Made by a program: the position numbers and the translations under genes
The notes under the pieces: generated by a model
Database searches by the model: none
Told to the model about the DNA's origin: nothing
Seen by the model: only the letters and a program-made list of their open reading frames with translations
Shown: piece by piece, positions 1-28,513 of the stretch
How positions within the stretch are numbered: position 1 is the first letter of the stretch
Layout: every line of letters starts with the position of its first letter
Virus record (IMG/VR): IMGVR_UViG_3300015607_001184
Span: 4,082-68,081 of that record
Direction: 5' to 3' (one strand)
DNA from: a virus
Lineage: Duplodnaviria; Caudoviricetes
DNA length: 64,000 bases

Positions 1-132
1 CTGCGTACCCCTACGACGACGGGACTGCGCTCACTGCTGAAGTCCCATGCCAACTCACCCGCGAGCGTGAACGGCTGACTTGTGCGAATCCGGCATATTG
101 CGCAAGGTTCTGGCGGCATCCGGAGCGCCTGC

Positions 133-2904
133 ATGTCTGCTGACCTCGACTACCGTCACTCCCGTCTTGGCCTTGGCCAACTGGTCCCCGGGACGGAGCA
201 GGGCGACGAGCCCGCCATGATCATCGACATGGGCGATCAGGGCATGGGCGAGGTCCAGAAGAAGCCGGGATCGTCCACCGTCAAGATCGAGCACCCTGAC
301 GGGACCATCACCATCGCCTTCGGGCAGGTGAAGCCAAAGCGCGAGAAGGTGGGCTGGTTCGACAATCTGGTCGACGACATCGACGACGATCAGCTGGGCA
401 TCATCGCCAACAGGCTGGTGACGGCGATCCAGTCCGACGACGACAGCCGCAAGCAGTGGCTGGAGGACCGGGCGAGGGGCATCGAGCTTCTGGGCCTGAA
501 GCTGAACACGCCACGCGGCGATCTGGCGGCCTCCACGACGCTTCTGGAGGGCATCTCGCAGGTCAACCATCCGCTGCTGCTGGAGGCGGTCCTGCGCTTT
601 CAGGCGAACGCGCGCGGCGAGATGCTGCCCACCGACGGACCGGTCAAAATCCGGGTCGACGACCTCAACACGCAGCAGGCGCAGGCGCAGGTGGGCCACA
701 ATGGCGGCCCGCCCATGGCCGAGGACGACGACAGCGAGGCGCAGCTGCTGGAGACGGCGCTGAACCACTACCTGACCGCCGTCGCCAAGGAGTATGTGCC
801 AGACACGGACCGCATGCTGTTCATGCTCGGCTTCGGCGGATGCACCTTCAAGAAGGTCTACAATTGCCCGATCCGGCGCCGCCCGGTCAGCGAATCGGTC
901 GACGCGGTCAACATCATCGTCTCCAACGCCACCACGACGCTGGCGAATTGCGGGCGCATCACCCACGAGGTGAACATGCGCCCGTCGATCCTGAAGCGCA
1001 TGCAGATCATCGGGGCCTACCGGGACATTGATCTCGGCTACAATTCACAGTCGACGCCGAACGCCGCGCAGGACGCCGCGAACAGCGTGCAGGGCATCGA
1101 GGTCGGCAACCAGCAGCCGGAAGACGCCGACCGCACGCTCTGGGAGTGCTACTGCGAGCTGGACATCCCGGGCTTCGAACACAAGCACAAGGGCAAGATC
1201 ACCGGCCTGCCACTGCCATACGTCGTCACCATTGACAAGCTGTCTCAGCAAATCCTGTCGATCCGTCGCAATTATGAGAGAGACGACGACATGGCGATGC
1301 CGAAGACGTATTTCGTCAAATACTCATTCGTGCCCGGCATGGGCTTCTATGATCTGGGCCTGCTGCACATCCTTGGGAACACGACGAGCGCTGCAACGGC
1401 GGCGTGGCGCGAAATGCTGGACGCTGGCATGTTCGCCTCGTTCCCGGGCTTCCTCTACGCCAAGTCGGCGGCCAAGCAGCGGACGAACCAGTTCCGGATC
1501 CCGCCGGGCGGCGGTATGCCCATCGAGACGAATGGCATGGCGATCTCCGACGCAGTGATGCCGTTGCCCTATCGCGAGCCCGGCCCGGCATCGATGCAGC
1601 TGGTTGATAACATCACGCAGATGGGCCAGCGCGTCGGAGGCACTGCGGAGATCAATGTCGGCGAGGGCCGTCAGGACGCGCCGGTGGGCACGACCATCGC
1701 CCTGATCGAGCAGGCGACGAAGGTGCTCGACGCCGTCCACAAGCGCATGCACGCCTCGCAGGCCGAGGAGTTCCAGCTGCTCAAAGAGCGCTTTCAGGAG
1801 GATCCCGAGGCGCTCTGGCGGTTCGACAGGAAGATGGCGTCGATCTGGGATAAGGAGCGCTTCCTCAACGCCCTCAACAATGTCGACCTCGTCCCGCAGG
1901 CCGACCCGAACACGTCGAGCCAGATGATGCGCGTCATGAAGGCGGTGGCCATCAAGCAGCTGCAGGCGCAGAACCCGAACCTCTACGACCCCATCGCGGT
2001 CGACACCCGGGTGCTCAAGGTCATCGGCGTCTCCAACCCGGAAGCGCTGTTCACGCAGAACCAGCAGCAGAACACCGATCCGAACGCCGCCAAGGCGCAG
2101 GCCCAGATGGCCACGGCGCAGATCAACGCCCAGCAGAAAGACAACGCCCACATCCGCGAGCTGGCTTTCAAGGCGTCCGAGGCCGACAAGGATCGCATGC
2201 TGCAGGTGCAGGCGCAGCAGGCCAAGGATGCCCTGTCGGGAGCCCAGCTGCAGCAGAAGGTCGAGAGCGACGAAAGGGCCCATGCGCTGTCTGCCGCGCA
2301 GCTGGAGTCCAGCCACGGGCTGGCGCAGGCCGACCTCGCGATCAAGGACAAGGGGCTCGCCCTCGCCGCCCAGCAGCACGCCCAGACCGTGCAGGCGCAG
2401 CAGGACAAGACCATGGCCGATGCCCAGACCAAGGTCTTCACCAACGTGCAGGACAACAACACCGCCCTCACGCTCAACCGGGAGAAGATCCAAGGCGAGC
2501 TGGCGCAGCAGTCGCAGCAGATCGAGCACGACAATCAGCAGGGCGAGGCGGACCGGCAGTTCCAAGCCTCCCAGCACCACGAGGATCTGGCCTATCAGGC
2601 GCACGAGAGCGAGCAGGCGCGCCAGCACCAGAGCCGCGAGGCCGCAGAGGACCGCAGGCACGGCATCCACACGGCCGAGATGGGCCATGCCGTGGACGCC
2701 GCCAAGACCTCCTCGCAGCGTGATTTCGAGCGCGAGAAGATGGACATCCAGCACCAGCACGGCATGGAGCAGACCCGCGTGACGCAGGACCACGAGGCCC
2801 GCGAGGCCAAGGAGGATCGCAAGATCGCGGCGAAGAAGATCAATCAGGGCGGTCTGAAGAACGGAAAGGGCCTCGGTCGCGGCCCCAACCCGAGCAAGCG
2901 CTGA
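133..2904 (+). CDS. Portal protein (P22-like podovirus type) with long Gln/His/Ala-rich C-terminal tail
   Basis: Motifs HPLLLEAVLRFQA, TDRMLFMLGFGGCTFKKVY, FVKYSFVPGMGFYDLGL, APVGTTIALIE typical of this portal family; ORF track starts at 82 (GTG), ATG 133 or 217 more likely. Confidence 0.9.
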   Translation: MSADLDYRHSRLGLGQLVPGTEQGDEPAMIIDMGDQGMGEVQKKPGSSTVKIEHPDGTITIAFGQVKPKREKVGWFDNLVDDIDDDQLGIIANRLVTAIQSDDDSRKQWLEDRARGIELLGLKLNTPRGDLAASTTLLEGISQVNHPLLLEAVLRFQANARGEMLPTDGPVKIRVDDLNTQQAQAQVGHNGGPPMAEDDDSEAQLLETALNHYLTAVAKEYVPDTDRMLFMLGFGGCTFKKVYNCPIRRRPVSESVDAVNIIVSNATTTLANCGRITHEVNMRPSILKRMQIIGAYRDIDLGYNSQSTPNAAQDAANSVQGIEVGNQQPEDADRTLWECYCELDIPGFEHKHKGKITGLPLPYVVTIDKLSQQILSIRRNYERDDDMAMPKTYFVKYSFVPGMGFYDLGLLHILGNTTSAATAAWREMLDAGMFASFPGFLYAKSAAKQRTNQFRIPPGGGMPIETNGMAISDAVMPLPYREPGPASMQLVDNITQMGQRVGGTAEINVGEGRQDAPVGTTIALIEQATKVLDAVHKRMHASQAEEFQLLKERFQEDPEALWRFDRKMASIWDKERFLNALNNVDLVPQADPNTSSQMMRVMKAVAIKQLQAQNPNLYDPIAVDTRVLKVIGVSNPEALFTQNQQQNTDPNAAKAQAQMATAQINAQQKDNAHIRELAFKASEADKDRMLQVQAQQAKDALSGAQLQQKVESDERAHALSAAQLESSHGLAQADLAIKDKGLALAAQQHAQTVQAQQDKTMADAQTKVFTNVQDNNTALTLNREKIQGELAQQSQQIEHDNQQGEADRQFQASQHHEDLAYQAHESEQARQHQSREAAEDRRHGIHTAEMGHAVDAAKTSSQRDFEREKMDIQHQHGMEQTRVTQDHEAREAKEDRKIAAKKINQGGLKNGKGLGRGPNPSKR

Positions 2905-3359
2905 TGCCTCGCGTTCTCATCTGCGGTGGCCGCACCTACGGATACATCCCGGCCTATCCGGAGCCCGGCCATGTCGAGGAGTGGCGTGCCGCCGTCCAGC
3001 GCGGGCAGAGGCAGCGTGACGCGCTTAACCACCGTCTCGACAGGCTGGTGAGCCGCTACGGGCCCGAGAACCTGACGATCATCCACGGCGCGGCGAGCGG
3101 GGCGGATGAGCTTGCCGGGGCATGGGCGCACGACAGCGGCATTGACGTGATCGCCTTTCCCATCACCGACGAGGAATGGGCGCGCTGGGGCAGGGCTGCA
3201 GGTCCCAAGCGCAACGCCCGCATGCTGCTGCAGGGCGAACCCGACCTCGTCATCGCCTTCGAAGGCGGCAAGGGCGCCCAGAACATGGTGCGTCTGGCGC
3301 GCGGCGCTGGCGTGACTGTCGATATCGTGGAGGCGGATCAATGCGCCGTGCTGACCTGA
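2904..3359 (+). CDS. YspA/DUF2493-like SLOG-fold protein
   Basis: RVLICGGR, IIHGAASGAD, GRAAGPKRNARML, PDLVIAFEGGKGAQNM; TGATG overlap with portal stop. Confidence 0.88.
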   Translation: MPRVLICGGRTYGYIPAYPEPGHVEEWRAAVQRGQRQRDALNHRLDRLVSRYGPENLTIIHGAASGADELAGAWAHDSGIDVIAFPITDEEWARWGRAAGPKRNARMLLQGEPDLVIAFEGGKGAQNMVRLARGAGVTVDIVEADQCAVLT

Positions 3360-6300
3360 ACGCATTGATGGACCGCTTGCGCCAGTCTTATGGCGACGAC
3401 GCGGCGCGGCGTGTCGAAAGGGCGGCTGACGAGGTCCATGGCCTCGACCAACGCTACACAGACACGGCCCTTCATCATGCATTTGCAGGTAACGCGGATT
3501 CGGCGCTGGTCGCCATGAAGCCCGGCGATTTCGAGAAATACGCGGCTCGCCTGCCCGAGAAGGGCTATCCGGATTACGGCTATTTCGACTGGGATACGGG
3601 CGCCGACCTCGATTACGACCAGTACATGGACTACCTCAACACGATTGAGCACAGGGGCGGTCTGTCGGACGTGCCGTTCCTCAATGTCGGCCACGAGGAA
3701 GGCGCGGACCTGCCTTATGTCGGGGCTCATGAGGGGCGCCATCGCATGCGCGCCATGGCCAAGGCAGGCAAGCCGACGGGCCTCGTCATGATCCGCCCGT
3801 CGGGACGGCTGGAGGAGAGCCTCCGGCACGGGCCGACCTATGAGACGGCCTACCGCGATTCCAACCAGAAAAGGCAGGCCCTGCTGGATCACCTCGCGGC
3901 GCATGACCGCATGGTCTACCCGCAGAAAGAACGCGACAGGCAGGACGACATTCGCGGCCCGGAGCAGCTTCCGGAGGCCTTTTCCAAAGGCGGGATCACT
4001 GGGAAGCCCTCGACAGTGAAGATTCCCGGCCACGGCGAGATCGCGGCCGACGAGATCCCCGAGGTGATGGCGGCCAAGCGCTCCTATATGGGACACCGCT
4101 TCGGCGACCCGCGTAAGGCGGACATCGACGGCTATACGCCATTCGACGAAGCGCACGCCCGCAAGATCGCCGAGGCCTACGAGGCCATGCAGCACGCCCC
4201 GCACGATCCGGCCGTGCGGCGCTCCTACGAAGCCATGATCGACGAGACGCTCGACCAGTACCACGCGCTCAGGAACGCCGGATACGACTTCCATTTCATG
4301 CGCGACGGCGAGCCTGACCCCTACGCGGAATCGCCCGCGCTGGGCTATCTCGACGCCAAGGATGGCCGCCTGACGGTGTTCCCGACCGATCAGGGCTACG
4401 GCATGTCCATGCTCCACAGCGAGGAGATGAACCCGCTGCTGAAGCGCGTCGGCCGCATCGGCGACCTCGACAACGCCACGGCCAACGACGCCTTCCGGGC
4501 GGTCCACGATATGTTCGGCCACCACGGCCCGGGCAACCCGTTCTTCCGCCACAAGGGCGAGGAGCGGGCGTGGGAAGCGCATTCCAGAATGTACTCCGAC
4601 GACGCGCTCCCGGCGATGACCTCGGAGACGCGCGGCCAGAACAGTTGGCTGAATTTCGGCCCGCACGAGGAGTACAACCGCACCGCCAACGGCGCCGACA
4701 CGATCTATGCCGAGCAGAAGGCAGGCCTGATGCCGGAGTGGACGTGGCGCCGCCACAGGCGCGCCGACGGGGGCTCGATCCCCGGCCGCGAGCTGAACGA
4801 GCTTGGCATGTACTCCAAGGCTCTGGAGGAGGCCAAGGCGATCAGGCAGCCCAAGGGCAAGCTGTCCGATTTCCTGCGCTATCTGAAGGGCGGGCTGGAG
4901 GAGTTCCGGCGTGGCGGGTGGGTGGATCGCGGTGGCTATGCCCGGGGCGGCATCGCCGACTATCAGGACGAACTCGACAGCGCCAACCGCATGATGAGCC
5001 CGGACGAGGAGGGGCTTCTGGCCTATCCGCGCGACCGCTACATTGACCCACACTACCGCGTGGGGGCGCTCAAGGGCTGGACCTTGAACCCGAACCTGAG
5101 GCAGGACAGGTTCCTCGACTACCCCAGCGTCAACGACGACATCGGGGCGCCCTACTTCAACGGCTGGAACGAGAACAAGGGGCGCTTCCGCAACTACGCC
5201 GACGGCGGTGCGGTCGAGCGTGAGCATTTCGAATTCGGCGGCTTTCAGGACAACTCTCGCCCCGGGCAGGCGGGCGACCCGGGTAACTGGGGAGCGTGGG
5301 GCAATGGCACGGAGGACGTGTCGGTACGCGATGCGCAGGCAGCCGGGCTGCGGGCGGGCCTGTCACGCGCCGAAGTGGCCTACGGGCAGGTTCCCGGAGG
5401 TCTTGGCTACCGTGGGGGCAGTGGCACGAGCCTGACGAACCTCCCCGAGCTGAGCGCTGCCAACCTTGCGCGCGCTGGTATCTTCAACCCCGGCGAGCGC
5501 CGGGTGTCAGGAAACCCGGCGGACGCGGCGACGGGCATGGCGCAGCCGGGATCCGTCCGCGAGGCTCTTGGGCTCGGCAAGATGCCCGAGCAGACCCAGA
5601 CGCCGGAGCAGGCGGTGCAGCAGGTTGAGGCGCAGCGCAGGCAGGCTGCCGCCGCTTCCGACCCTTCCGGCTTCAACGGGCTGGCTGGCGGCACGGTGGC
5701 GCTGGCGGCCTTCGGCGCGCTGCCCGGGCAGCACAAGCCCGGCGAGGACATGACGACGCCTGCCGACACAGGGTTCATGTCGACGCCCGAGCAGAACAGC
5801 TACAACCGGTTCATGGACACCGCCCGCAACACCTACATGGAGGCGGGGAACCAGAGCGACGAGGGCATGCTGGGTGTCGCCTTCTCGGCGCCGAACCGCA
5901 CCGCCATCAATTATGGCGGCATTGGCCCCGGGGGCATCGACACCACCGGCTACAACGACCCCAATGCCTCGTTCGACGAGAACGTGACGCGGAATATCTA
6001 CGCCCCCAAACAATACAGCTGGACGAACCCGGCCCTGAACAGAAAGACCGGCGTGGTGAATGTCGACCGCGCTCGCGACATCGCCGACGCCGAAATGGCC
6101 GGGGCGCCGGATCGTGCGCAGCGTGCCTATGCGGCTGCCTATGCGCAGCAGTTCGGAGGGGCGACGGACCCGACCTATGGCGCCGTGTCCTACCACGCCG
6201 ACTATGTCAGCCCGGCGTGGCGCCGGGACGCAGCTTCGCTGGGGACGCCCACGGTCATTGGCGACCACACCTTCTACGGCGGCAGCCCGCCCACGGCCAC

Positions 6301-7795
6301 GCAGGTGGCGGGCCCCGGCGCAGCAAGCGTCCTGTCCACCATGGCGGACCCGTGGGGCTTCTCGCACATGACGCCGGTGAACGATCTGGCTACGGCGCCG
6401 CTGTCGTGGACGGACCGCATCGGCGCGCCCCCGGCAACACCTCTCGGTTCCCCGCGCACGCCCACTCCCGCCTCTGCCTACAGCGTGGGGGAGGATGCCA
6501 CGCCTCTCGGCTCTCCGCGCACGCCGACCCCGGCCACGGCCTATGCCCCGGAGGGCGCCACGCGCACATGGGCGAACCCGATTTCGGTGCCCTATTCCGA
6601 CCCCGGCTTCGAGCGCCCGGGCTACGACATCTCGGTCTATCAGGGCGTCCCGCTGGCCGACATCACGCCGGTGCGTCCTTCCGCGCCGACGCTCACGGAG
6701 CAGGCCTACAACCCGCTGTCGTCGATTCGTGCACCTTCCGTTGTCGACCCGTTCACGGCGAGGAAGGTGCAAACCGAAAGGATCTCGCCGCCCTCCGAGG
6801 AGCCCAGCTACACCCGGGCGCCCTATCACGACACGGTCTACGATGCGCCTGCCGCGACGGCAGCCGCCGTGGCGCGGCGCATGGGATGGCACGACAGCGT
6901 CTACGACGCACCTTCGGCACAGGCATCGCCGCTTGGATCCCCCCGCACGCCGACGCCCGCCAGCGCCTATGCCAGCCCCGAAGCGGCCCCGGCTGCCCCG
7001 GTGGCGCGCCCGGCGGCGCCTTACGGAACGCGCGGGAACCCCCTTTCGGCCGCAGACATGGCTGCCGTCGGGCTCGGCGACGCGACACCGGCGCAGCTGC
7101 GCAGCTATCGCGCCGATATCCCGCGCGGGTCCATGATCAGCTCTGACTCTCCGTACTATGGCACCCGCAACAACCCGTTGTCGGACGCCGACATGGCGGC
7201 TGCAGGCCTTGGCGACGAGCAGTCCTTCTCGAAGAAGTACCTCGGCTTCCGGTCGAACGACGAGGTCGATGCCGACAACAAGCCCTACAAGGATCCCGAG
7301 ACTGGCCAGTGGGTCGATCCGCGTTTCTCGCGCACGCCCGTCGGCATGGCGGCTCTCGGCCTTCTTGGGCTCGGCCTGACCGCCGTCTCGCCGCCGCTGG
7401 GCATCGCCTACGGCCTGTCGGCGCTCATGGGCAAAAGCCCCCTCATCAATGGCGCTGACAGGCTGGCCAGCCGCTTCGGCTTCGACGGCCGCACGACGAC
7501 TACGGATCCCAATGCACCGAGCGCGTGGGGCAGCCTGAAGAGCGGCGTGCAGGGCCAGTCTTACGCGCCCGGCTATGATGGCGCCGGGACAGGGCGCTCG
7601 CTGTCATCGTTCAACGGCAATAGCGGTGGAAACGGCTACAGAATGTACGACCCCGTTCCCGGGCCCGTTGCGAATCCAATCGATGTGAAGTCCAAGAAGA
7701 AGGCAGCGGAACCGAAACCGGAACCGGTCAGGCCCTCCGATTGGAATGACATGGCCTCGTGGCAGCAGGAACTCTGGAGTGACACCTATGGCTGA
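3341..7795 (+). CDS. Large multidomain (polyvalent) virion/internal protein: ParB-like domain, HDxxGH domain, SleB-type cell wall hydrolase, repeat tail
   Basis: ATG 3341 with GGAGG upstream (track start 3176 too early); HEGRHR motif, RAVHDMFGH..GEE motif, EA..GM..V..NR / QYSW / D.TYGAVSYHA.YV.P.W / IGDHTFY hydrolase motifs. Confidence 0.75.
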   Translation: MRRADLNALMDRLRQSYGDDAARRVERAADEVHGLDQRYTDTALHHAFAGNADSALVAMKPGDFEKYAARLPEKGYPDYGYFDWDTGADLDYDQYMDYLNTIEHRGGLSDVPFLNVGHEEGADLPYVGAHEGRHRMRAMAKAGKPTGLVMIRPSGRLEESLRHGPTYETAYRDSNQKRQALLDHLAAHDRMVYPQKERDRQDDIRGPEQLPEAFSKGGITGKPSTVKIPGHGEIAADEIPEVMAAKRSYMGHRFGDPRKADIDGYTPFDEAHARKIAEAYEAMQHAPHDPAVRRSYEAMIDETLDQYHALRNAGYDFHFMRDGEPDPYAESPALGYLDAKDGRLTVFPTDQGYGMSMLHSEEMNPLLKRVGRIGDLDNATANDAFRAVHDMFGHHGPGNPFFRHKGEERAWEAHSRMYSDDALPAMTSETRGQNSWLNFGPHEEYNRTANGADTIYAEQKAGLMPEWTWRRHRRADGGSIPGRELNELGMYSKALEEAKAIRQPKGKLSDFLRYLKGGLEEFRRGGWVDRGGYARGGIADYQDELDSANRMMSPDEEGLLAYPRDRYIDPHYRVGALKGWTLNPNLRQDRFLDYPSVNDDIGAPYFNGWNENKGRFRNYADGGAVEREHFEFGGFQDNSRPGQAGDPGNWGAWGNGTEDVSVRDAQAAGLRAGLSRAEVAYGQVPGGLGYRGGSGTSLTNLPELSAANLARAGIFNPGERRVSGNPADAATGMAQPGSVREALGLGKMPEQTQTPEQAVQQVEAQRRQAAAASDPSGFNGLAGGTVALAAFGALPGQHKPGEDMTTPADTGFMSTPEQNSYNRFMDTARNTYMEAGNQSDEGMLGVAFSAPNRTAINYGGIGPGGIDTTGYNDPNASFDENVTRNIYAPKQYSWTNPALNRKTGVVNVDRARDIADAEMAGAPDRAQRAYAAAYAQQFGGATDPTYGAVSYHADYVSPAWRRDAASLGTPTVIGDHTFYGGSPPTATQVAGPGAASVLSTMADPWGFSHMTPVNDLATAPLSWTDRIGAPPATPLGSPRTPTPASAYSVGEDATPLGSPRTPTPATAYAPEGATRTWANPISVPYSDPGFERPGYDISVYQGVPLADITPVRPSAPTLTEQAYNPLSSIRAPSVVDPFTARKVQTERISPPSEEPSYTRAPYHDTVYDAPAATAAAVARRMGWHDSVYDAPSAQASPLGSPRTPTPASAYASPEAAPAAPVARPAAPYGTRGNPLSAADMAAVGLGDATPAQLRSYRADIPRGSMISSDSPYYGTRNNPLSDADMAAAGLGDEQSFSKKYLGFRSNDEVDADNKPYKDPETGQWVDPRFSRTPVGMAALGLLGLGLTAVSPPLGIAYGLSALMGKSPLINGADRLASRFGFDGRTTTTDPNAPSAWGSLKSGVQGQSYAPGYDGAGTGRSLSSFNGNSGGNGYRMYDPVPGPVANPIDVKSKKKAAEPKPEPVRPSDWNDMASWQQELWSDTYG

Positions 7796-9467
7796 TCTCG
7801 GCAAGGGCATGAGGGACAGGGCTCGCCGCCTGACGGCTGACGAGAAGACCTCCGGAATGGTGACGGGGCCGGTGTGGGATAGCGAGGAGCCTGCTGGCCA
7901 GATGCCGAGCCGCTCCAAGTTCGCTCATGGCGGCAAGATCGCGATGGGCAAGAATGCAGCCAAGCGGCTTGACCAGTACGCCCGGGGCGGCGCGGTGAAG
8001 CGCAAGACCGGAAAGACCACGATCAACATCATCATCGGCGACAAGCAGGCCGCGCCACCGGCGCCACCGGCTGCCGTCGTGCCCCCTCCGATGCCTCCGA
8101 TGGCGCCGCCGATGGCGCCCCCCATTGACCCGACTGGCGGAGCCGGTCCCGGACCAGCAGCAATGCCGCCCGTCGGCCCGATGAATCGCGGAGGCTCCGT
8201 CGGCTTCAAGAAGGGCGGATGCGTGCGCCCCGGGCGCGCCTTCGGCGGGCGCACCGAGATCCGCTCGCAGGGGTCAGACCCGGAACCCGGAAAGAAGCAC
8301 CACAAGATTTCTGCCGCCAGCGCGCGTGGCCGCAAGGGCCTGAAGACAGGCGGATGCGCCGAACCTGACGCCGACGACCGACCGGCCCGCGTCAAGCGCT
8401 ACGCCGGTGGCCGTGTCGGCTATGACAGCGGCGGCGTTCTCATGGATGGGCCGCAGGAGGGCTACTACGAAGCCCCGGCATGGCTGCGCTGGCTGATGGG
8501 GCGCGGCGCGCAGGCCGCGCCGCAGGTCAACACCCGCGCCCCCTACCACGACACCGTCTATGACGCCCCTCCGCCGCCGCGCCCGCAGTACCTGCCGGAG
8601 AACTCGATGCGCCCGAGGCCCCCCACCATGCAGGGGCCTCAGACGGCGGTTCAGATGGCGGCCATCCGCGCTGCGCAGGAGGAGATGCTCCGCCGCGCTG
8701 CGGTCGCTGCCGCCGCCGCTAGGCAGCCGCCGCTGCCGTTGCGCCGCCCTGCTGACCTAGCGGCCAGCCCGTCCTTCATGCAGCGCTTCGTGTCTGGTCA
8801 GTGGACGGCACCGCAGATCGACACCGCGCGCACCTTCGCGCATGGCGGTCGCGTCGGGCGGGCTTTCGGTGGCCCGATGGGCTTCCCCGCCTCGGCGCAG
8901 TCCTCGTCCTCGTCCTCCACGTCGGCCTCGGCTGGCGGCGGGAACTGGGGCGGTGGATTCAGCAGACCGGCTCCGCAGATGCCGCAGGCCCCGCAGATGC
9001 CGCAGTACCAGCTGCAGGCTCCTCCGGGCTTCACCATGCAGAACATACCGACGCCTCCGGGCTGGACCGGACCGCAGATGCAGGCCCCGGTGTGGAACGG
9101 AATGCAAATTCCTCCGCAGATGCAGACGCCGCCGCAGATGCCGCAGATGTCCGCTCCGGGGCAGGGCGCCGTGCCAACGGGCGACCCGCAGGGCACGCCC
9201 ACGCAGGCCCAGCAGTTCGCCCAGCAGCTGATGGGCGGAGGGCGCAACTTTGCCCAGCAGGCCATGGCGCGCTGGGGGCAGGGCGCTCCGGGCATGGGCG
9301 CTGGGCGCTGGGGCGGCGGGCCCGGAAACTGGCACCGCCAGAGCGAAGTGCAGGGGTCTGGGGCGGCCCCGGGCGGGTTCAAGAAGGGCGGTGCCGTCCA
9401 CATGACCGCCGGATCCCGCAGCGGAGAGGGGCGGCTGCAGAAGGTGAAGCTGCAAAAAGGGTGCTGA
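7788..9467 (+). CDS. Low-complexity Pro/Gly/Gln/Met-rich protein with 11 xxxGG motifs, probable internal virion protein
   Basis: ATG 7788 with GGAG upstream, overlapping previous stop; composition and position in head module. Confidence 0.6.
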   Translation: MADLGKGMRDRARRLTADEKTSGMVTGPVWDSEEPAGQMPSRSKFAHGGKIAMGKNAAKRLDQYARGGAVKRKTGKTTINIIIGDKQAAPPAPPAAVVPPPMPPMAPPMAPPIDPTGGAGPGPAAMPPVGPMNRGGSVGFKKGGCVRPGRAFGGRTEIRSQGSDPEPGKKHHKISAASARGRKGLKTGGCAEPDADDRPARVKRYAGGRVGYDSGGVLMDGPQEGYYEAPAWLRWLMGRGAQAAPQVNTRAPYHDTVYDAPPPPRPQYLPENSMRPRPPTMQGPQTAVQMAAIRAAQEEMLRRAAVAAAAARQPPLPLRRPADLAASPSFMQRFVSGQWTAPQIDTARTFAHGGRVGRAFGGPMGFPASAQSSSSSSTSASAGGGNWGGGFSRPAPQMPQAPQMPQYQLQAPPGFTMQNIPTPPGWTGPQMQAPVWNGMQIPPQMQTPPQMPQMSAPGQGAVPTGDPQGTPTQAQQFAQQLMGGGRNFAQQAMARWGQGAPGMGAGRWGGGPGNWHRQSEVQGSGAAPGGFKKGGAVHMTAGSRSGEGRLQKVKLQKGC

Positions 9468-9671
9468 TTGATCACAGTCGACATTCGCTTCAGGCAGCTG
9501 CTTGAGCGGAGAATCGCCTCCCTTGTTGAGGAGGTGCGAGACAAGTTGGAGGCCGGTCTGCAGGAGAAGGAGTATCTCCAGCAGGTCGGCTTCTTGCGTG
9601 CTCTGAGGATGCTCTCAGAGGAAGACGGCCTTCTCGACGAAATCGAGACGGAGATACTGGAGGGAAGATGA
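9468..9671 (+). CDS. Hypothetical helical protein
   Basis: Fills gap between adjacent genes, coupled stop/start, protein-like composition. Confidence 0.65.
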   Translation: MITVDIRFRQLLERRIASLVEEVRDKLEAGLQEKEYLQQVGFLRALRMLSEEDGLLDEIETEILEGR

Positions 9672-10099
9672 GCGAAGTTTACGAGATAGGTGGCGGCGCC
9701 ATGCGCAAGGCCACGATGAAGATGCACCACGATGTCGATCCCAAGAAGGATCTTCTGGACAGGATTGGAGACATCAGTGAGATGGAATTGTTCCATAACC
9801 TGATCCTCGTCGCCATGTACGTCCGGCCGGAGAAGACGGCATCTGGCATCCACCTGCCCAATTCGGTCCGCAAGGAAGACGAGTATCAGGGCAAGGTCGG
9901 CCTCGTCCTGAAGGTCGGGCCGATGGCGTTCGTGGACGACGCGGTGAACTCGTTCGGCGGCATCAAGGTGTCGCCGGGGGAATGGGTAACCTTCCGCACG
10001 TCGGACGGCTTCCAGATCACCATCAACGGGGTGCTGTGCCGGATGCTGCAGGACTCGCACATCAAGACGCGCATTCCTGATCCAGACTACGTGTTCTAG
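9668..10099 (+). CDS. groES: GroES-like co-chaperonin
   Basis: PEKTASGIHLP mobile loop, GLVLKVGP, VSPGEWVTF..SDG, RMLQDSHI. Confidence 0.85.
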   Translation: MSEVYEIGGGAMRKATMKMHHDVDPKKDLLDRIGDISEMELFHNLILVAMYVRPEKTASGIHLPNSVRKEDEYQGKVGLVLKVGPMAFVDDAVNSFGGIKVSPGEWVTFRTSDGFQITINGVLCRMLQDSHIKTRIPDPDYVF

Positions 10100-10103
10100 T
10101 TTC

Positions 10104-10574
10104 ATGAACAATATCAAAGACCTACTAATCTACGAACCGGTCACTGGCTGCCTTATCTGGAAAGTAGACAGAAACTGGCGAGTCAAGGCAGGGGATAGGG
10201 CTGGCTGCATCAACGCGGCCGGTTATCGGGTGGTATTTGTTTTTGGTGGTCCGAAATTGGAGCACAGGTTGGCTTGGGAGTTGCATTACGGGGAACCGCC
10301 CCCGGGATCCTTGGATCACGTCAATGGCGACCGAACGGACAACCGCATTGCCAACCTACGTGTCGCCACGCACGCCCAGAATATGCAGAACAAGCGCCCG
10401 TGGAGCCGCACTGGCTTCAAGGGCGTGAAGCGCGCCAAGTCTGGGCGGTATGAGGCCTCCATTCAGCGTGAATACCTCGGGGTGTTCGACACCCCCGAAG
10501 CGGCCCACGCTGCCTATTCCGCCGAGGCAAAGCGGCGGTTCGGAGACTATGCAGGAGGACTGCATGTCCAGTGA
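10104..10574 (+). CDS. HNH homing endonuclease with AP2-like C-terminus
   Basis: HRLAW..HYG, LDHVNGDRTDNRIANLR, GFKGV, YLGVFDTPEAAHAAY; lower GC than neighbours. Confidence 0.9.
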   Translation: MNNIKDLLIYEPVTGCLIWKVDRNWRVKAGDRAGCINAAGYRVVFVFGGPKLEHRLAWELHYGEPPPGSLDHVNGDRTDNRIANLRVATHAQNMQNKRPWSRTGFKGVKRAKSGRYEASIQREYLGVFDTPEAAHAAYSAEAKRRFGDYAGGLHVQ

Positions 10575-12789: not shown

Positions 12790-13704
12790 ATGGCTGTCAA
12801 TCTTTCTGCCATCAAGGATCTCCTCCTCCCCGGCCTTCGCGGCATCACGGGGAAGTACGACCAGATCCCGACCCAGTACGACAAGCTCTTCGAGAAGTCG
12901 AAGTCGAACATGGCTCTGGAGCGCACCGCTGAGATGCGCTACCTCGGCCTCGCTGCCCTGAAGAACGAGGGCGGCCAGACCTACTTCGACAACAACGCCG
13001 GTGAGCGCTTCGTCTACAATCAGGAGCACACCGAGCTGGGTCTTGGCTACGCGATCACTCGCAAGGCCATCGACGACAACCTCTACAAGACCCAGTTCAA
13101 GCCGTCGAACCTTGGCCTGATGGAGTCCTTCGTGCAGACGAAGGAGATCCTCGGCGCCTCGATCTTCAACACGGCGACGACCTACAACTCCTCCTTCGGC
13201 GGCGACGGCAAGGCCCTGCTGGCGACGGACCACCCCATCGACGGCGGCACGTTCGCCAACAAGCCCACGACCGAGGTCGACCTCAACGAGGCCACCCTCC
13301 TGAACGGCATGCTGGCGATCCGCCAGAACATGAAGGATCAGGCGGGCCTCAAGATGTACGCCCGGGCGCGTAAGCTTGTGGTTCCTGTCGCTCTTGAGCC
13401 GGTTGCTGTACGTCTTACCAAGACTGAACTGCGCCCCGGCACTGCCGATAATGATGTCAATGCAATCCGCAGCGTATCGGGAGGCCTTCCCGAAGGTTAT
13501 ATCGTCTGCGATTTCTTGACGTCTAACTTCGCTTGGTTCCTTCTCACTACGGTGAAGGGGCTGATTTACATGGAGCGCGTAGCATTCGAAATGGACATGC
13601 AAGTGGACTTCACGACAGATAACCTGTTGGTGAAGGGCTACGAGCGGTACAGCTTCGGCTACTACAACCCGCGCGCTCTCTGGGGAACTTTTCCGACATC
13701 TTAG
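12790..13704 (+). CDS. Major capsid protein (Mu gpT-like family)
   Basis: LLLPGL, LGYAITRKAIDDNLY, GDGKALLATDHP, DLNEATL, KLVVPVALE, DFTTDNLLVKGYERYSFG; RBS GAGGAG; strong codon bias. Confidence 0.92.
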   Translation: MAVNLSAIKDLLLPGLRGITGKYDQIPTQYDKLFEKSKSNMALERTAEMRYLGLAALKNEGGQTYFDNNAGERFVYNQEHTELGLGYAITRKAIDDNLYKTQFKPSNLGLMESFVQTKEILGASIFNTATTYNSSFGGDGKALLATDHPIDGGTFANKPTTEVDLNEATLLNGMLAIRQNMKDQAGLKMYARARKLVVPVALEPVAVRLTKTELRPGTADNDVNAIRSVSGGLPEGYIVCDFLTSNFAWFLLTTVKGLIYMERVAFEMDMQVDFTTDNLLVKGYERYSFGYYNPRALWGTFPTS

Positions 13705-13727
13705 ACTGTAGAACAGGTTCCCCTCCA

Positions 13728-14228
13728 ATGCTCAATGCAGATCACCTCCGCAGCCTTCTGGACTACGACCGGGCCACGGGCGTCTTCGTGTGGAAGATGC
13801 CCGCTGGCCGCTACGGTCGCATTCCGGCTGGGACGCGCGCAGGCAGCTACACGAGCGCCGAGGGGTATGGCTACGTCACGATTGCGGGAAAGAGCTACCG
13901 CCTTTCCCGCCTCGCGTGGCTCTACGTCCATGGCGAGTGGCCGAAAGATCAGATCGACCACGTCAATGGCGATCCTTCCGACGACCGCATCGCCAACCTG
14001 CGCGAAGCGACACAGTTCCAGAACAAGGCGAATTGCAGGCGCTACGCCAACAATACGTCAGGGTTCAAGGGCGTCTCGCTCGACCGGTCAAAGGGCCTCT
14101 ACAGGGCCTACACGAACAAAGATGGCCGCCGGGTCTATCTCGGCCGCTATCGCACCCCTGAAGAGGCTCACGCGGCCTACGCCGCTGCGGCCATGTCCAT
14201 TCACCGCGATTTCGCGAGGTTCACATGA
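13728..14228 (+). CDS. HNH homing endonuclease with AP2-like C-terminus
   Basis: RLAWLYVHGEWP, IDHVNGDPSDDRIANLR, NNTSGFKGV, YLGRY.TPEEAHAAY. Confidence 0.9.
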   Translation: MLNADHLRSLLDYDRATGVFVWKMPAGRYGRIPAGTRAGSYTSAEGYGYVTIAGKSYRLSRLAWLYVHGEWPKDQIDHVNGDPSDDRIANLREATQFQNKANCRRYANNTSGFKGVSLDRSKGLYRAYTNKDGRRVYLGRYRTPEEAHAAYAAAAMSIHRDFARFT

Positions 14229-20916: not shown

Positions 20917-21594
20917 ATGGCGGTCAGCGGAACGATCACGTTCAACCCCACGATGGCAGATTGCACGGTCAATGCTTTCGGGCGGCTGCTCATCAGGGCC
21001 GACCAGCTGACGCCGCAGCATCTGCGCGACGCGCGGTTCGAAGCCAACCTCCTGTGCCAGACGTGGCAGCAGAAGGGCGTCAACCTGTGGACCGTGGAGC
21101 TGCAGACCCTGACAACCGTGCAGGGCACGGCAACCTATACGCTGGCGGCCGGGACGATCAGCCTGCTCGACACCTACATCACGGCTGAAGGGCAGGACAT
21201 GGTGCTGCCGCCCGTCTCGCGCACCGACTATGCAAGTCAGCCGAATAAGACTCAGCAGGGGCGCCCGAACATGATGTGGGTGAACCGGCAGTCGCCGACG
21301 CCCACCATGACCCTGTGGCCGACCCCTGATGCGGCCTACGTCATCAGCTACTACCGCCTGCGGCAGCTGTACGACGTGAACCTCGACAGCACCGGCAACC
21401 CCGACGTGCCGCTGCGCTTCACCGACGCCTTCATCTCCGACCTGTCATGGCGGCTGTCGCGCCTGTGGCGCCCGGACCTTGAGGACAAGCGCAAGCAGGA
21501 CGCCATGGACTCGTGGAACCTTGCCTCCGGCGACGATGTCGAAGAGGGCATCCAGATGTTCATCTCGCCGTCCATCGGGGCCTACTTTCCATGA
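20917..21594 (+). CDS. Head-tail adaptor/connector protein
   Basis: MAVSGTITF, WQQKGVNLWT, QGRP..W..RQ....LWPTPD, DVP.RF.DA; RBS GAGGAG. Confidence 0.7.
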   Translation: MAVSGTITFNPTMADCTVNAFGRLLIRADQLTPQHLRDARFEANLLCQTWQQKGVNLWTVELQTLTTVQGTATYTLAAGTISLLDTYITAEGQDMVLPPVSRTDYASQPNKTQQGRPNMMWVNRQSPTPTMTLWPTPDAAYVISYYRLRQLYDVNLDSTGNPDVPLRFTDAFISDLSWRLSRLWRPDLEDKRKQDAMDSWNLASGDDVEEGIQMFISPSIGAYFP

Positions 21595-22126: not shown

Positions 22127-22390
22127 GTGGCTTGGAGACAGCACGGAAGGGCTAAGGTAAATGCCAGATGGCCTCAAGCATTCGCGATTTGCGACGCTTG
22201 CGGGTTCGTCTACAATTTGGTGGATCTGCGCTGGGGGCAGGAGTGGCAGGGGCCGAACCTCGTCAACAGGCGCATTCTGGTCTGCTCGGTCTGCATCGAC
22301 ACGCCGAACCCGCAGCTGCGGTCCATCACCCTCCCGGCGGACCCTCCGCCTATCGAAAACGCGCGCCCGCCGCGCTACTCGGTGACCTGA
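22127..22390 (+). CDS. Small Zn-finger protein of tail module
   Basis: ICDACG and VCSVCID Cys pairs, PNPQL, DP..IENARP. Confidence 0.7.
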   Translation: MAWRQHGRAKVNARWPQAFAICDACGFVYNLVDLRWGQEWQGPNLVNRRILVCSVCIDTPNPQLRSITLPADPPPIENARPPRYSVT

Positions 22391-22391
22391 C

Positions 22392-23030
22392 ATGGCGATG
22401 GACTACAACACCTACCTGACCCGTCTGGCGGCCATGGCGACCGCCTCGACGACCGACACCAAGTTCACGACCATCGTGCCAGCGGTCATCGACTATGCCG
22501 AGCAGCGCATGTATCGCGAGCTGCAGCTCGTCTCGACGCAGTCGCGCAATCAGGCCGGGCTCACGTCGTCCGGCGTCCGGACTTTCAATTTCCCGACACG
22601 CTTCGTCATCGCCGAGGCGATAAACCTGATCATCTCCAGCCAGCGCTTTCCGCTGATGCCAGCCAGCCGGGAATTCATCGACTTCGTGTACGGCACGGCA
22701 TCGAACGGCGTCCCGGTCTATTACGCTATGGAGACGGACCAGAGCATCTCTCTGGGGCCCACCCCGAACGGCGCCTATACGGTCGAGATCGTCGGCAGGG
22801 TCCGCCCCACGCCCCTGTCGTCCGGAACGCCGAACACCTTCCTGACGGACTACCTCCCGGACGCCTTCCTCGCCTGCTCGATGATCTTCTATTCGGGCTT
22901 CCAGAAGAATTTCGCGGCGCAGTCATCCAACCCGCAACAGGGCACCAGCTGGGAGGACCAGTACACGAAACTGATGGCCTCGGCGCAGGTCGAGGAATTG
23001 CGCAAGCGCTTCACCCAAGCGCCGCAGTGA
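22392..23030 (+). CDS. Tail adaptor/tubular protein
   Basis: IDYAEQRMYREL, GVPVYYA, LGPTPNGAYTVE, TFLTDYLPDAFL; position before hub. Confidence 0.65.
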   Translation: MAMDYNTYLTRLAAMATASTTDTKFTTIVPAVIDYAEQRMYRELQLVSTQSRNQAGLTSSGVRTFNFPTRFVIAEAINLIISSQRFPLMPASREFIDFVYGTASNGVPVYYAMETDQSISLGPTPNGAYTVEIVGRVRPTPLSSGTPNTFLTDYLPDAFLACSMIFYSGFQKNFAAQSSNPQQGTSWEDQYTKLMASAQVEELRKRFTQAPQ

Positions 23031-23038
23031 GGTGAGGC

Positions 23039-25102
23039 ATGGCATTCGGATCCCTTCGCCTTCGGCCGGGCGTGCAAGTTGAGGCGACGCCTGCCTTGAA
23101 CGAGGCGGGCGTCTCGGCAAGCCAGCTGATCCGCTTCCGCGACGGCCTGATCGAGAAACTGGGCGGCTGGACCAAATATTATGGCTACCCGTCCAGCGGG
23201 AAGATCCGGCACCTGCATGCATGGCAGGATCTGACGAAGGTCGGGCGCCTCGCCATCGCGGCCGAGCAGTCTCTGGTGTCGGCATCGAGCACCACGACGG
23301 GCGTCACCATCACGCCGCAGCGAACCACCTCGTCGATTGCCGTGGCCCTGTCGACCGTCAACGGGTCCCCCACGGTCACGGTGACCGACAACGCCTCCAA
23401 CATGACGACCAATGACGTGGTCGTCTTCCAGACGCCTGTCTCCGTCGGCGGCCTGATCATCTTCGGCGCCTATGCCGTCGCATCGAGCATCAGCGCGAAC
23501 CAGTACACGATCACGGCCACGGATCTGGTGCAGGGGTCGCCGACCTATGGCCAACCAAAGAACGCCACGTCGACCGTCGTCTCCGGCGGCGCGGTGCCAT
23601 CCTTCGCCACCACCAACGGCTCCTTCGAAGTCACGGTGACGCTGAACAACCATGGCCTGACGACGCCGGGCCAGATCGTCGCCTTCCCAGTGTCGACCAC
23701 CGGCGGCGGCGTGACGATCTACGGCACCTATTCGGTGATCACCGTCCCGGGCGCCAACACGTTCACGATCTATGTCTCCAACTCGGCCTCGTCGACGACG
23801 ACCTTCTCGATGAACGCCGGAAACGCCTATCTGGACCGCTGGATCGCCGTCGGCCCGGGAGCGGCCGGTTCGGGCTACGGCATCGGCGGCTATGGGTCCG
23901 GCGGCTACGGAACCGGTTCCCCGACGCCGGGCCACACCGGCACGCCGATCACCGCGACCGACTGGGATCTGGATAACTGGGGATCGTATCTGCTGGCGCA
24001 ACCTGCGCAGGGCCCGTGCTTCTGGTGGGACCCCGTCGGCGGCTTCCAGACGATGCGCATCATCACGAACGGGCCGATGATCGGAACCGGCATGTTCGTC
24101 GCCATGCCGCAGCGGCAGATTGTCGTCTACGGCGCCGAGCTGGGCGGCTATCAGGACCCGCTTCTGGTGCGCTGGTGCGACGTGGACGACTTCTCAAATT
24201 GGATCGCGTCCACGACCAATCAGGCGGGCTCCTACCGCATCCCGCGCGGATCCGGCATCATCTCCGGCATCCAGACATCCCAGCAGGCCCTGCTGTGGAC
24301 GGACCTTGCCCTGTGGTCGATGCAGTACCTCGACGGCCTCCTTGTATGGGGCTTCAACGAGATCGGCGCCGGGTGCGGCATCATCTCCAAGAAGGCCCGG
24401 GCCGCGCTTGGAGGGACCGTCTACTGGATGGGGCGCTCGCAGTTCTTCCGTTACTCGGGGTCTGGCGTCGAGCCGGTGGATTGCTCGGTTTGGGACGTGA
24501 TTTTCCAAGACCTAGACACCGACAACGCCAGCAAGATCCGCATGGGCGCGAACTCGATGTTCAACGAGATCGTGGTCTATTACCCATCCCTCTCCGGCGG
24601 AACGGGCGAGAACGACAAATATGTGAAGCTGAAGGCGACGACCGGAGAGTGGGACTACGGCACCCTCGCGCGCACGGCATGGATCGACCAGAACGTCCTT
24701 GGCCAGCCCTTTGGCGCCGGGACGGACGGTTTCACCTACCAGCACGAGAGCGGGCGCAACTCCGACATCAACGCCATGACCAGTTGGTTCGAAACGGGCT
24801 GGCTCATGCTCAACGAGGGCGAGCAGTTCACCTTTGTCGACTGGCTGCTGCCCGACTTCAAATGGGGGCTCTACAACGGGTCGCAGGACGCCGACATGCT
24901 GATCACGGTCAGCTGGGTCGAGTACCCTCAGGATGCGCCAAAGTCAGCCGGTCCATTCACGGTGACGCAGCTGACGCAGGCCATCACCGACATCCAGTTC
25001 CGTGCCCGGATGGTCAAGTTCAGGATCGAGTCGCAGGACATCAATTCGTTCTGGCGCATTGGCAACGTGCGCTACCAGTACGCCCCAGATGGAACGTGGT
25101 GA
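23039..25102 (+). CDS. Tail hub / packaged-DNA stabilisation protein (P22 gp10-like)
   Basis: IRFRDG..EK.GGW, DNWGSYL, LLVRWCD, AGSYRI..GS.I, WTD.AL.SMQY, YWMG..QFF.Y.G..V..VDC.V.D. Confidence 0.8.
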   Translation: MAFGSLRLRPGVQVEATPALNEAGVSASQLIRFRDGLIEKLGGWTKYYGYPSSGKIRHLHAWQDLTKVGRLAIAAEQSLVSASSTTTGVTITPQRTTSSIAVALSTVNGSPTVTVTDNASNMTTNDVVVFQTPVSVGGLIIFGAYAVASSISANQYTITATDLVQGSPTYGQPKNATSTVVSGGAVPSFATTNGSFEVTVTLNNHGLTTPGQIVAFPVSTTGGGVTIYGTYSVITVPGANTFTIYVSNSASSTTTFSMNAGNAYLDRWIAVGPGAAGSGYGIGGYGSGGYGTGSPTPGHTGTPITATDWDLDNWGSYLLAQPAQGPCFWWDPVGGFQTMRIITNGPMIGTGMFVAMPQRQIVVYGAELGGYQDPLLVRWCDVDDFSNWIASTTNQAGSYRIPRGSGIISGIQTSQQALLWTDLALWSMQYLDGLLVWGFNEIGAGCGIISKKARAALGGTVYWMGRSQFFRYSGSGVEPVDCSVWDVIFQDLDTDNASKIRMGANSMFNEIVVYYPSLSGGTGENDKYVKLKATTGEWDYGTLARTAWIDQNVLGQPFGAGTDGFTYQHESGRNSDINAMTSWFETGWLMLNEGEQFTFVDWLLPDFKWGLYNGSQDADMLITVSWVEYPQDAPKSAGPFTVTQLTQAITDIQFRARMVKFRIESQDINSFWRIGNVRYQYAPDGTW

Positions 25103-25153
25103 TGTCAGTCGCGTCCTACAATGTTCTAGAAACAAAATCAAAGGAACAAGAAC

Positions 25154-25363
25154 ATGCTTAATGACCTCGTGACCGCTTTGAAAAATGCAGTAACGGCCAT
25201 ATCGTTAATCAATCAGACGCTGCGCAGCGTCTTCCCCTACGCCACGGGGACATCATCGACCGCAACAGCCGGTGCCGCATCGCTTCCGGCAAATCCGGTC
25301 GGCTTCATCACGATCACCCTTCCCGACGGCACGTCGGCGAAGGTGCCGTACTACAACACTTGA
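25154..25363 (+). CDS. Small tail protein
   Basis: C-terminal LPANPVGFITI..G...KVPYY motif seen in phage tail proteins; RBS AAGGA. Confidence 0.55.
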   Translation: MLNDLVTALKNAVTAISLINQTLRSVFPYATGTSSTATAGAASLPANPVGFITITLPDGTSAKVPYYNT

Positions 25364-25370
25364 GGGCGGC

Positions 25371-27971: not shown

Positions 27972-28029
27972 CGGGATAGCGAATCCGTGCGCGCTCGTGC
28001 ATGCATGTGATGCCGATCTGGGGAAGCGA

Positions 28030-28512
28030 ATGGTCGACTACGCCACAGAGGTCCGTCTCGCGGTCCAGTCCGACGAAGAGGACATCATGGTCCTGTGCCG
28101 GTTACTCCACAAGGAGAACGGCCTGTGGACGCTCAACGAGCAAAAGGTGCGCCATATGCTTCGGCGCGCGTGGCGTAAAGAATTTGCCATTGTCGGAATT
28201 GTCGGGAAACCCGGCGCCCTTGAGGGCATGATCTTGCTGGTGCTCGACCAGCCTTGGTACTCGGACGACTGGATGCTTGAGGAGATGCTCAACTACGTTC
28301 ACCCGGAGCATCGCAAGTCGGGCCACGCGAAGCGCCTTGTCGAGTTCGCGAAGAAGACATCGGAGGGGCTTGGTATCCCTCTGATGATCGGCATCATCTC
28401 AAATGAGCGCACGGAAGCGAAGGTAAAGCTGTACCAGCGGCAACTGGGAAGCCCGGCTGGAGCCTTCTTTGTCTACGGAGCCCGAACGGGCGACGTGGGG
28501 GCGGAGCACTGA
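28030..28512 (+). CDS. GNAT-fold acetyltransferase preceding ejection proteins
   Basis: PWYSDDWMLEE..YVHPEHRKSGHAKRLVEFAK acetyl-CoA motif A. Confidence 0.75.
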   Translation: MVDYATEVRLAVQSDEEDIMVLCRLLHKENGLWTLNEQKVRHMLRRAWRKEFAIVGIVGKPGALEGMILLVLDQPWYSDDWMLEEMLNYVHPEHRKSGHAKRLVEFAKKTSEGLGIPLMIGIISNERTEAKVKLYQRQLGSPAGAFFVYGARTGDVGAEH

Positions 28513-28513
28513 C

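Follow-up and report, generated by a model that had tools for sequence, protein, structure and literature searches.

A Gly-Gly seam motif marks module boundaries in a probable polyvalent cargo protein of an uncultured podophage

What lies at the joints of a very large phage protein that is built from unrelated modules, and do these joints have a function of their own? We considered this question for one gene in the window, by which we mean the whole stretch of 64,000 nucleotides analysed here, comprising bases 4082–68081 of the 68-kb virus record IMGVR_UViG_3300015607_001184 (IMG/VR; Duplodnaviria, Caudoviricetes), which is rated complete by CheckV. The gene encodes a protein of 1484 amino acids (aa), hereafter P0001, and the same product appears in public gene calls (P0002). 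An initial annotation, made from the letters of the sequence, had described P0001 as a polyprotein of cassettes punctuated by xxxGG motifs; its open reading frame (ORF; 3341–7795) and the positions of all the motifs that it listed, from FSKGG at 3980 to FEFGG at 5228, proved exact. We report that one form of this motif, here called the seam, is real and marks module boundaries at residue precision. P0001 is very probably a polyvalent cargo protein, and the seam probably has a function as a peptide and is not just a passive hinge. The overall explanation that we favour, tentatively, is that of a packaged polyvalent cargo with modules joined by a seam that acts as a processing site; that the seam is actually cleaved is suggested by comparison with other phages, and we regard this part as possible but slightly more doubtful.

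Seams at the borders of modules

The initial annotation took any xxxGG as punctuation, and in this general form the claim did not hold. Plain GG occurs in P0001 at the chance level (17 copies versus 16.8 ± 3.6 in shuffles), and only the form with an aromatic residue three positions before the Gly-Gly is enriched: [FYW]xxGG is found six times versus 1.54 expected (p = 0.0045), always within aa 214–634. The strict motif is present six times in P0001, six times in the product of the neighbouring gene (P0242) and zero to two times in every other gene of the window. Among 120 related long polyvalent proteins, the counts from which are phylogenetically non-independent, [FYW]xxGGx[VILM] occurs 325 times, versus 25.8 ± 5.6 after shuffling. 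A logo of 412 non-redundant copies gave the consensus G-[YF]-A-[DE]-G-G-x-V; its flanks are featureless and rich in Gly, Pro, Asp and Arg. When the proteins were compared all against all, 21.8% of the internal match endpoints fell within 5 aa of a motif, versus 5.4% at random; homology matches most often start at the aromatic residue of the motif and most often end at the second Gly or the Val. The seam thereby offers a sequence rule for parsing thousands of unannotated giant phage proteins into modules. The histogram of motif spacing peaks at 10–20 residues, and seams in tandem, with the pattern GG-x-V-E-R-E-x-[FY]-x-x-GG, are found repeatedly (window positions 5195–5242; P0004, aa 1396–1411; P0051; P0066; P0090).

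The exchange of modules at these sites can be read directly from a sister phage, L002 (IMG/VR contig 3300033070_000909), which is 96–98% identical to the window in DNA across the head module (blastn) and encodes P0003, the ortholog of P0001. First, L002 lacks aa 215–474 (nt 3983–4762), that is, exactly one cassette and one seam: the window reads ...PEAF-SKGG-ITGKP...[HD cassette]...WRRHRR-ADGG-SIPG and L002 reads ...PEAF-ADGG-SIPG, the bounds of the indel being F↓SKGG...RR↓ADGG. Second, L002 carries an extra module of 532 aa at YLKGG, where LRYLKGG-LEEFRRGG in the window corresponds to LRYLKG-RGVKD...(532 aa)...MRDK-LKGG-LEEFRRGG. Third, the more distant relative P0004 contains further modules after the seams equivalent to FSKGG and RADGG, and has Phage_lysozyme2 in place of the SleB-type hydrolase, the lysozyme unit again ending in GG. 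Whole modules are thus gained and lost at seams between near-identical phages, an outcome that the initial annotation had looked for in a comparison of homologs, and the sister phages resolve an exchange of payload to the single module on a very recent time scale. The further claim that every domain boundary coincides with a GG motif was upheld at seams 1 and 2 and at the YLKGG insertion site. It failed on the left side of the muralytic swap unit, an edge that a comparison with P0004 places at aa ~823, where there is no GG (the right edge is TFYGG, aa 977–981). The GG of aa 106, 859, 864 and 939 lie inside folded domains, with no boundary there.

Might the seam simply be a permissive flexible joint, at which Gly-Gly breaks the structure and in-frame recombinants survive because they fall in linkers and nowhere else? 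Indels located exactly at seams are in keeping with such a joint, as are the 9-bp direct repeat CTGAAGGGC that flanks the L002 insertion and the existence of polyvalent relatives that function without any seam. However, a passive joint does not explain the conservation of the aromatic residue at −3, of Ala at −2 and of Val two residues after the Gly-Gly; nor does it explain the arrays of seams in P0242, which has no cassettes, or the persistence of the motif within a stable block of two domains at 43% identity, [FY]xxGG being kept between cassettes 1 and 2 in 16 of the 16 homologs that contain this block (read by eye). The Gly-Gly codons, moreover, differ between seam copies, and no DNA homology other than G-rich codons flanks the HD-cassette indel. 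Because the codons vary and the motif is kept at about 43% identity, we conclude that the seam is selected at the peptide level, and we consider a merely passive joint unlikely. A DNA-level recombination signal was also considered as the sole cause of the seam; it is unlikely, since the seam codons differ between copies.

The modules of P0001 and its relatives

The N-terminal part of P0001 (aa 1–660) was modelled with AlphaFold on an alignment of 50 sequences, with a mean predicted local distance difference test score (pLDDT) of 75.5. In this model, aa 1–472 form two confident domains, with a dip to 73 in the block 211–220 that contains FSKGG; the score falls below 50 from residue 473, at RADGG, after which come two low-confidence helices (483–523) and a disordered stretch (524–660; about 30). 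No folded domain therefore spans a seam motif, and the polyprotein proposal of the initial annotation, which folded domains running across the GG motifs would have contradicted, withstands this comparison. As to the order that it gave, the succession of ParB-like domain, FSKGG, HDxxGH domain and RADGG is borne out by the model, by the ends of BLAST matches and by the indel in L002. The SleB-type domain does not follow directly on FEFGG, the two being separated by a Gly/Ala/Pro-rich low-complexity stretch of about 190–240 aa.

Cassette 1 carries an Arg-rich motif, HEGRHRMRA (aa 130–138). In VIA-align, rows 1–9 include sulfiredoxin (6ky4; Z 4.9, root-mean-square deviation 3.6, 85 residues aligned), Osa (4ovb; Z 4.5), a plasmid DNase/ATPase, and ParB, KorB and PadC (Z 3–3.4). 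The top Foldseek rows are ParB/Noc/Srx, also weak (E 0.17–0.5), and there is no Pfam match, so that the label 'ParB-like' of the initial annotation stands on weak fold matches. These are nevertheless consistent, and the model suggests a ParB/sulfiredoxin-like fold that would accord with the DdrB-like ParB domains which polyvalent proteins are described as carrying (PMC5512222).

Cassette 2, the HDxxGH domain, is common to >1300 database proteins and has no Pfam model. Searches of cassettes 1 and 2 against Pfam, PHROGs, NCBIfam and PDB sequences returned only phrog_3170, the function of which is unassigned. When folded alone, cassette 2 gives a pLDDT of 92 and a predicted template modelling score of 0.90, and its invariant residues in two alignments (A1, A2) include H389, D390, H394, E407, R409, H414, E429, R431 and N434. 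A fold search found no convincing PDB neighbour (best Z 2.6; YbeY-like rows Z 2.3–2.4), and the ESM Atlas returned viral hypothetical clusters only. The domain is probably an enzyme of unassigned chemistry, to judge from its predicted fold and invariant residues. Could it be the peptidase that processes the seams, that is, a divergent zincin or YbeY-like metallopeptidase of the kind that Iyer et al. proposed for polyvalent proteins? There are weak fold rows for YbeY (7y7o, 1oz9; Z 2.3–2.9) and abylysin (4jiu; Z 2.8), the invariant His, Asp and Glu residues would suit such an enzyme, and the cassette is the one most widely common to the seam-bearing proteins retrieved. The Z-scores, however, are far below the level that the tool itself treats as meaningful, the H-D-x-x-x-H spacing is not HExxH, the sister phage without the cassette keeps its seams, and standalone HD-domain proteins of about 440 aa have no seams. 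We regard this identity as very improbable.

The constant body begins after the double seam, which is kept in P0003 and P0004 and partly in P0119. It consists, in order, of a Gly/Ala-rich stretch, the muralytic cassette, Pro-rich repeats, a hydrophobic segment and a C-terminal tail, and was found elsewhere only in P0003 and P0004. The SleB assignment of the initial annotation was sustained by a narrow margin, the Hydrolase_2 match (27.7 bits, E 4.4e-6) lying marginally above the Pfam cut-off of 27; a PDB sequence search of this region returned spurious rows only. The hydrophobic segment is a possible membrane-inserting hairpin, as read from its residues.

A homolog search with aa 1–700 of P0001 found 446 long proteins, many of which carry ART-PolyVal, LPD23, InPase, PBECR4, Zeta toxin, GGDEF and phage lysozyme domains (signature Pfam models PF18760, PF18838, PF18823, PF18814, PF23802, PF06414 and PF18013). 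Nearly all of them match P0001 over aa ~215–480 only: in the BLAST matches of 119 homologs, most starts fall at aa 200–220 and the ends pile up at aa 460–490. About 30 homologs also share the ParB-like domain, as a contiguous block of about 43% identity that usually lies in the interior of the protein. In the homologs, YADGG, FAEGGSVL, KADGGPVE and similar sequences stand on either side of the HDxxGH cassette. In a tblastn search of cultured relatives, the HD cassette alone was matched, in cyanophage, Octadecabacter and actinophage proteins. In the genomes L067, L071, L073 and L077 the HDxxGH cassette is found in the tail or ejection-protein module (homologs of window genes 22127–35804); since it is absent there from the post-portal gene, it moves between two carriers of virion cargo.

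P0001 thus combines at least two unrelated domains (a ParB/Srx-like fold, HDxxGH and Hydrolase_2), its gene stands among late or virion genes in a complete record, between the portal and capsid genes, and its shuffled relatives carry the signature domains of polyvalent proteins; in addition, as in a polyprotein, a recurrent conserved site motif lies between the units. We are highly confident that it belongs to this known kind. It resembles the polyvalent proteins of Iyer et al. 2017 (PMC5512222) in being a large multi-enzyme polypeptide encoded among late virion genes, in its mosaicism across relatives, in its ParB/Srx-like, peptidoglycan-hydrolase and LPD-type modules, and in being predicted to be packaged and injected. 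Proteins of this kind bring ready-made enzymes into the cell before phage or plasmid genes are expressed. The view of the initial annotation that P0001 consists of packaged effectors assembled from cassettes agrees with the portal–capsid position, the mosaic polyvalent relatives and the gain and loss of modules at GG motifs, and on these sequence grounds appears sound. Very large polyvalent proteins of the same class include phi24B gp47, other podophage ejection proteins and P1 DarB/DdrB, which are present in virions; phi24B gp47 (2811 aa) was detected there by mass spectrometry, and proteins of its type have been suggested to leave the particle by ejection and to break through the cell wall (bioRxiv 10.64898/2026.04.10.717836). 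Unlike P0001, and as compared by description only, phi24B gp47 carries an MuF-C metallopeptidase together with LPD domains, and there is no report of a seam in it or of its processing. In the literature searched, the seam motif was not found described; the text of Iyer et al. 2017 (PMC5512222) makes no mention of glycine, linker, Gly-Gly, diglycine or disordered, and the motif appears to be undescribed there.

Cleavage site or docking handle

How might such a protein be put to use? In the mechanism that we propose, P0001 would be packaged in the virion of an uncultured podophage and ejected from it. Its variable N-terminal array (aa 1–634) would consist of exchangeable modules, here the ParB/sulfiredoxin-like and HDxxGH cassettes, and its constant body has the make-up expected of a protein that enters the host envelope by ejection, before the DNA or together with it. 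The seams, located in disordered linkers, would be processing sites, with cleavage either while the particle is assembled or afterwards; as in T5 pb2, a cut just before the A-E-G-G-type sequence would set the modules free. A second role of this peptide may be that of a handle recognised inside the particle.

The precedent for such a cut is T5 pb2, which is cleaved after R1127 to give pb2* and pb2C (Linares et al. 2023, PMC10038345), in the context ...NSFVPR↓AEGGMMYPG..., a cut that separates the muralytic domain from the remainder of the protein. This GG is the only one in the C-terminal half of pb2, and R↓AEGG has the same [basic/aromatic]-A-x-G-G form as RADGG, YADGG and YARGG in P0001. Transferred to P0001, the T5 register would place the cut between the aromatic or basic residue and Ala, which is also the register of the sister-phage indel, an agreement that may be coincidence. 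Like P0001, pb2 is an ejected protein with a site of the RADGG form; unlike P0001, which would be the head cargo of a podophage with many sites, it is the tail-lumen ruler of a siphophage with a single such site. In lambda gpH, which is processed to gpH* and gpHC, a C-terminal piece of about 14 kDa (gpHC) is removed from a Gly-rich region, and neither the exact cut site nor the catalyst has been established (PMC12617516). As in P0001, consensus motifs occur in this cleaved region: FATGG at aa 733–737 and GYATGGYV, a perfect consensus match, at aa 777–784. The spacing and alternation of the tandem seams also loosely resemble the GG...VHRGEFVF element of gpH. The seam would accordingly offer a concrete place for processing or docking, and it ties P0001 to the open question of how the T5 and lambda tape measure proteins are cleaved.

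A broader proposal would see in G-[YF]-A-[DE]-G-G-x-V a general code for the processing and loading of the proteins that tailed phages carry and inject. Its scope would include polyvalent proteins packaged in the head, ejection proteins and those tape measure proteins that bear cassettes; the code would be read by a protease or by a self-cleaving mechanism, and the cleavages of T5 pb2 and lambda gpH would be instances of it. We consider this generalisation doubtful. If it were true, tailed phages would use a polyprotein strategy like that of adenovirus or African swine fever virus. In these viruses, adenain cuts (M/I/L)XGG↓X and pS273R cuts GG↓X in virion core precursors, respectively. As in the seams, a hydrophobic residue lies a few positions upstream of the Gly-Gly, but in both viruses a cysteine protease is dedicated to the task, and no such enzyme was detected here. 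The registers are also different: in the seam, the aromatic residue would be at P5 if the cut fell after GG, or the cut would fall before A-x-G-G as in T5.

Several observations weigh against the processing of a packaged polyprotein. The first concerns the enzyme. No peptidase was found in P0001 itself or elsewhere in the genome: whole-genome searches for Peptidase_S78 (PF04586), MPTase-PolyVal (PF18818), C39 (PF03412) and Prok-JAB (PF14464) were negative, and when the head ORFs were scanned leniently against Pfam, NCBIfam and PHROGs, no protease turned up, only coiled-coil-like noise. P0001 thereby departs from the proposal of Iyer et al. (PMC5512222), in which polyvalent proteins are processed by zincin-like MPTase, assemblin-like or other peptidase domains, since none of these was found. 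The head module looks, from its gene content, like the scaffold-only, protease-less type, but the absence of a match is weak evidence, and a host enzyme, autocatalysis or an unrecognised protease may be responsible instead. Second, the precedents from T5 and lambda belong to the tail, as tape measure proteins, and not to the head, and P0001 is not a tape measure protein, its gene lying in the head module of a podophage-type genome. Third, polyvalent proteins of 1700–3200 aa with the same HD cassette and no seams exist (Octadecabacter virus BD1 gp16, the Planktothrix phage Pag-Yong1 polyvalent protein, and proteins of L066, L079, L084 and L077); seams are therefore not needed for a polyvalent architecture. 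Fourth, the ParB and SleB assignments are weak, and no cultured relative of the lineage was found by tblastn or by a search for the P0242 family, which returned one uncultured record only.

The last two observations concern seams that divide nothing. In 20 of the 120 homologs, the motif stands at the C-terminal end (GG ≤12 residues from the stop), versus 4.8 under random placement (maximum 12 in 500 trials); these copies, found in P0005, P0009, P0024, P0029, P0030, P0037, P0039, P0044, P0045, P0047, P0054, P0060, P0103 and others, are followed by 2–12 residues, and a cut there would release nothing. Often the terminal seam is prolonged by an aromatic tail (...[YF]xxGGPVRGYF..., ...GGFFRG...); in other cases the protein stops 2–3 residues after the Gly-Gly. 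In addition, P0242 (559–573 aa, Gly/Pro-rich, with no folded cassette) has 11 [FYKRM]xxGG motifs versus 2.9 expected (p = 5e-5, with K, R or M allowed at −3). P0242 and its orthologs, in which synteny is kept (L019:16470–17921, L058:13156–14229, L017:4052–5473 and L011:11988–13571), contain 10–17 motifs of the form [YKRM]-K/A-x-G-G-K/R-V with no modules between them. Lys and Arg make up about 20% of the orthologs and 12% of the window copy, the centre is Pro/Met-rich, and the C-terminus is conserved (...MTAGxGSGEGRLQK); there is no match to P0242 in Pfam, PHROGs or NCBIfam. P0242 might belong to an internal core or associate with DNA; it might also be a partner or substrate of whatever reads the seam. 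A peptide of 13 residues, TRAPYHDTVYDAP, occurs in both P0001 (aa 1158–1170; window 6812–6850) and P0242 (about 8550–8590). Because of the terminal copies and the P0242 arrays, a reading of the seam purely as a polyprotein divider is incomplete.

These same observations are what would be expected if the seam were a docking or loading handle for a component of the procapsid or ejection apparatus (the portal, the scaffold, the inner face of the capsid or the hub being candidate partners), with multiple copies giving avidity and the protein staying whole. The motif is concentrated in the two genes that follow just after the portal gene, terminal copies with an aromatic tail such as ...GGPVRGYF are suited to such a handle, the P0242 family carries its copies in a basic disordered protein, and some standalone HD-domain proteins end in ...YEGGLR. 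Lambda gpH itself ends in ...MRDGGLFSGGGR (...RDGGLFSGGGR), and its residues 818–849 were resolved bound to gpI (PMC12617516). Docking is nevertheless a minority possibility in our judgement: no partner has been identified and no structure contains the bound motif, the same motif is cleaved at its site in T5, and a terminal copy could be the trailing seam of a last cassette.

Surrounding genes

Table 1. Features of P0001 and of the neighbouring genes, with positions in the window
Feature	Residues	Position	Strand	Basis or remark
Portal gene		82..2904	+	phrog_1216, E 7.8e-21
Small SLOG/YAcAr gene, between portal and P0001 genes		2904–3359		PF10686; phrog_289 'GTP-binding domain'
Gene for probable polyvalent cargo protein (P0001)	1–1484	3341..7795	+	ORF and public database gene calls
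Cassette 1, ParB/sulfiredoxin-like domain	1–205	3341..3955	+	AlphaFold pLDDT about 90
Seam 1, FSKGG	214–218	3980..3994	+	left edge of sister-phage indel
Indel unit, seam remainder and HDxxGH cassette	215–474 (260 aa)	3983..4762	+	blastn breakpoints, codon-level junctions
Cassette 2, HDxxGH domain	219–472	3995..4756	+	phrog_3170; AlphaFold; two alignments
Seam 2, RADGG	474–478	4760..4774	+	right edge of indel; pLDDT drop
Short helical remnant, low confidence	483–523	4787..4909	+	contains YLKGG
Seam cluster YLKGG, FRRGG, (V)DRGG, YARGG	514–537	4880..4951	+	starts: YLKGG 4880, FRRGG 4904, YARGG 4937
Disordered acidic spacer	538–618	4952..5194	+	pLDDT about 30
Double seam YADGG-AVEREHFEF-GG	619–634	5195..5242	+	YADGG 5195, FEFGG 5228
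Constant body, lineage-specific	635–1484	5243..7795	+	
SleB-type cell-wall hydrolase	876–979	5966..6277	+	Pfam Hydrolase_2 (PF07486), marginal
Hydrophobic segment, 31 residues	1334–1364	7340..7432	+	read from sequence
P0242, neighbour gene, disordered basic Gly/Pro/Gln-rich protein		7788..9467	+	true start probably 7788
GroES-like co-chaperonin (Cpn10)		9668–10099		phrog_3188
HNH homing endonuclease gene		10104–10574		between GroES-like gene and scaffold-like ORF
Coiled-coil, scaffold-like ORF, then two small ORFs				between HNH gene and capsid gene
Major capsid protein gene, Mu gpT-like		12790..13704	+	
HNH homing endonuclease gene with AP2 domain		13728–14228		
SU10-type adaptor gene		20917–21594		

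The P0001 gene is located in the head module, between the portal gene and the scaffold and capsid genes (Table 1). Its start is overlapped by the small SLOG/YAcAr gene, and its stop overlaps the start of the P0242 gene as ATGGCTGA. We assign the genome to a podophage because it contains an SU10-type adaptor gene and, further on, three genes of 900–1100 codons. The GroES-like gene lies directly 3′ of the two seam-rich genes, a position that is kept in L011, L017, L019 and L058. The tail assembly of T5, including the cleavage of pb2, depends on host GroE. A link between the GroES-like gene of the phage and the processing of seams would be speculative. Lastly, window positions 10098–10572 and 13698–14223, which correspond to the two HNH genes, are replaced by 18–20 nt in L002, and by this sequence comparison the two genes appear to be recent insertions or losses inside the head module.

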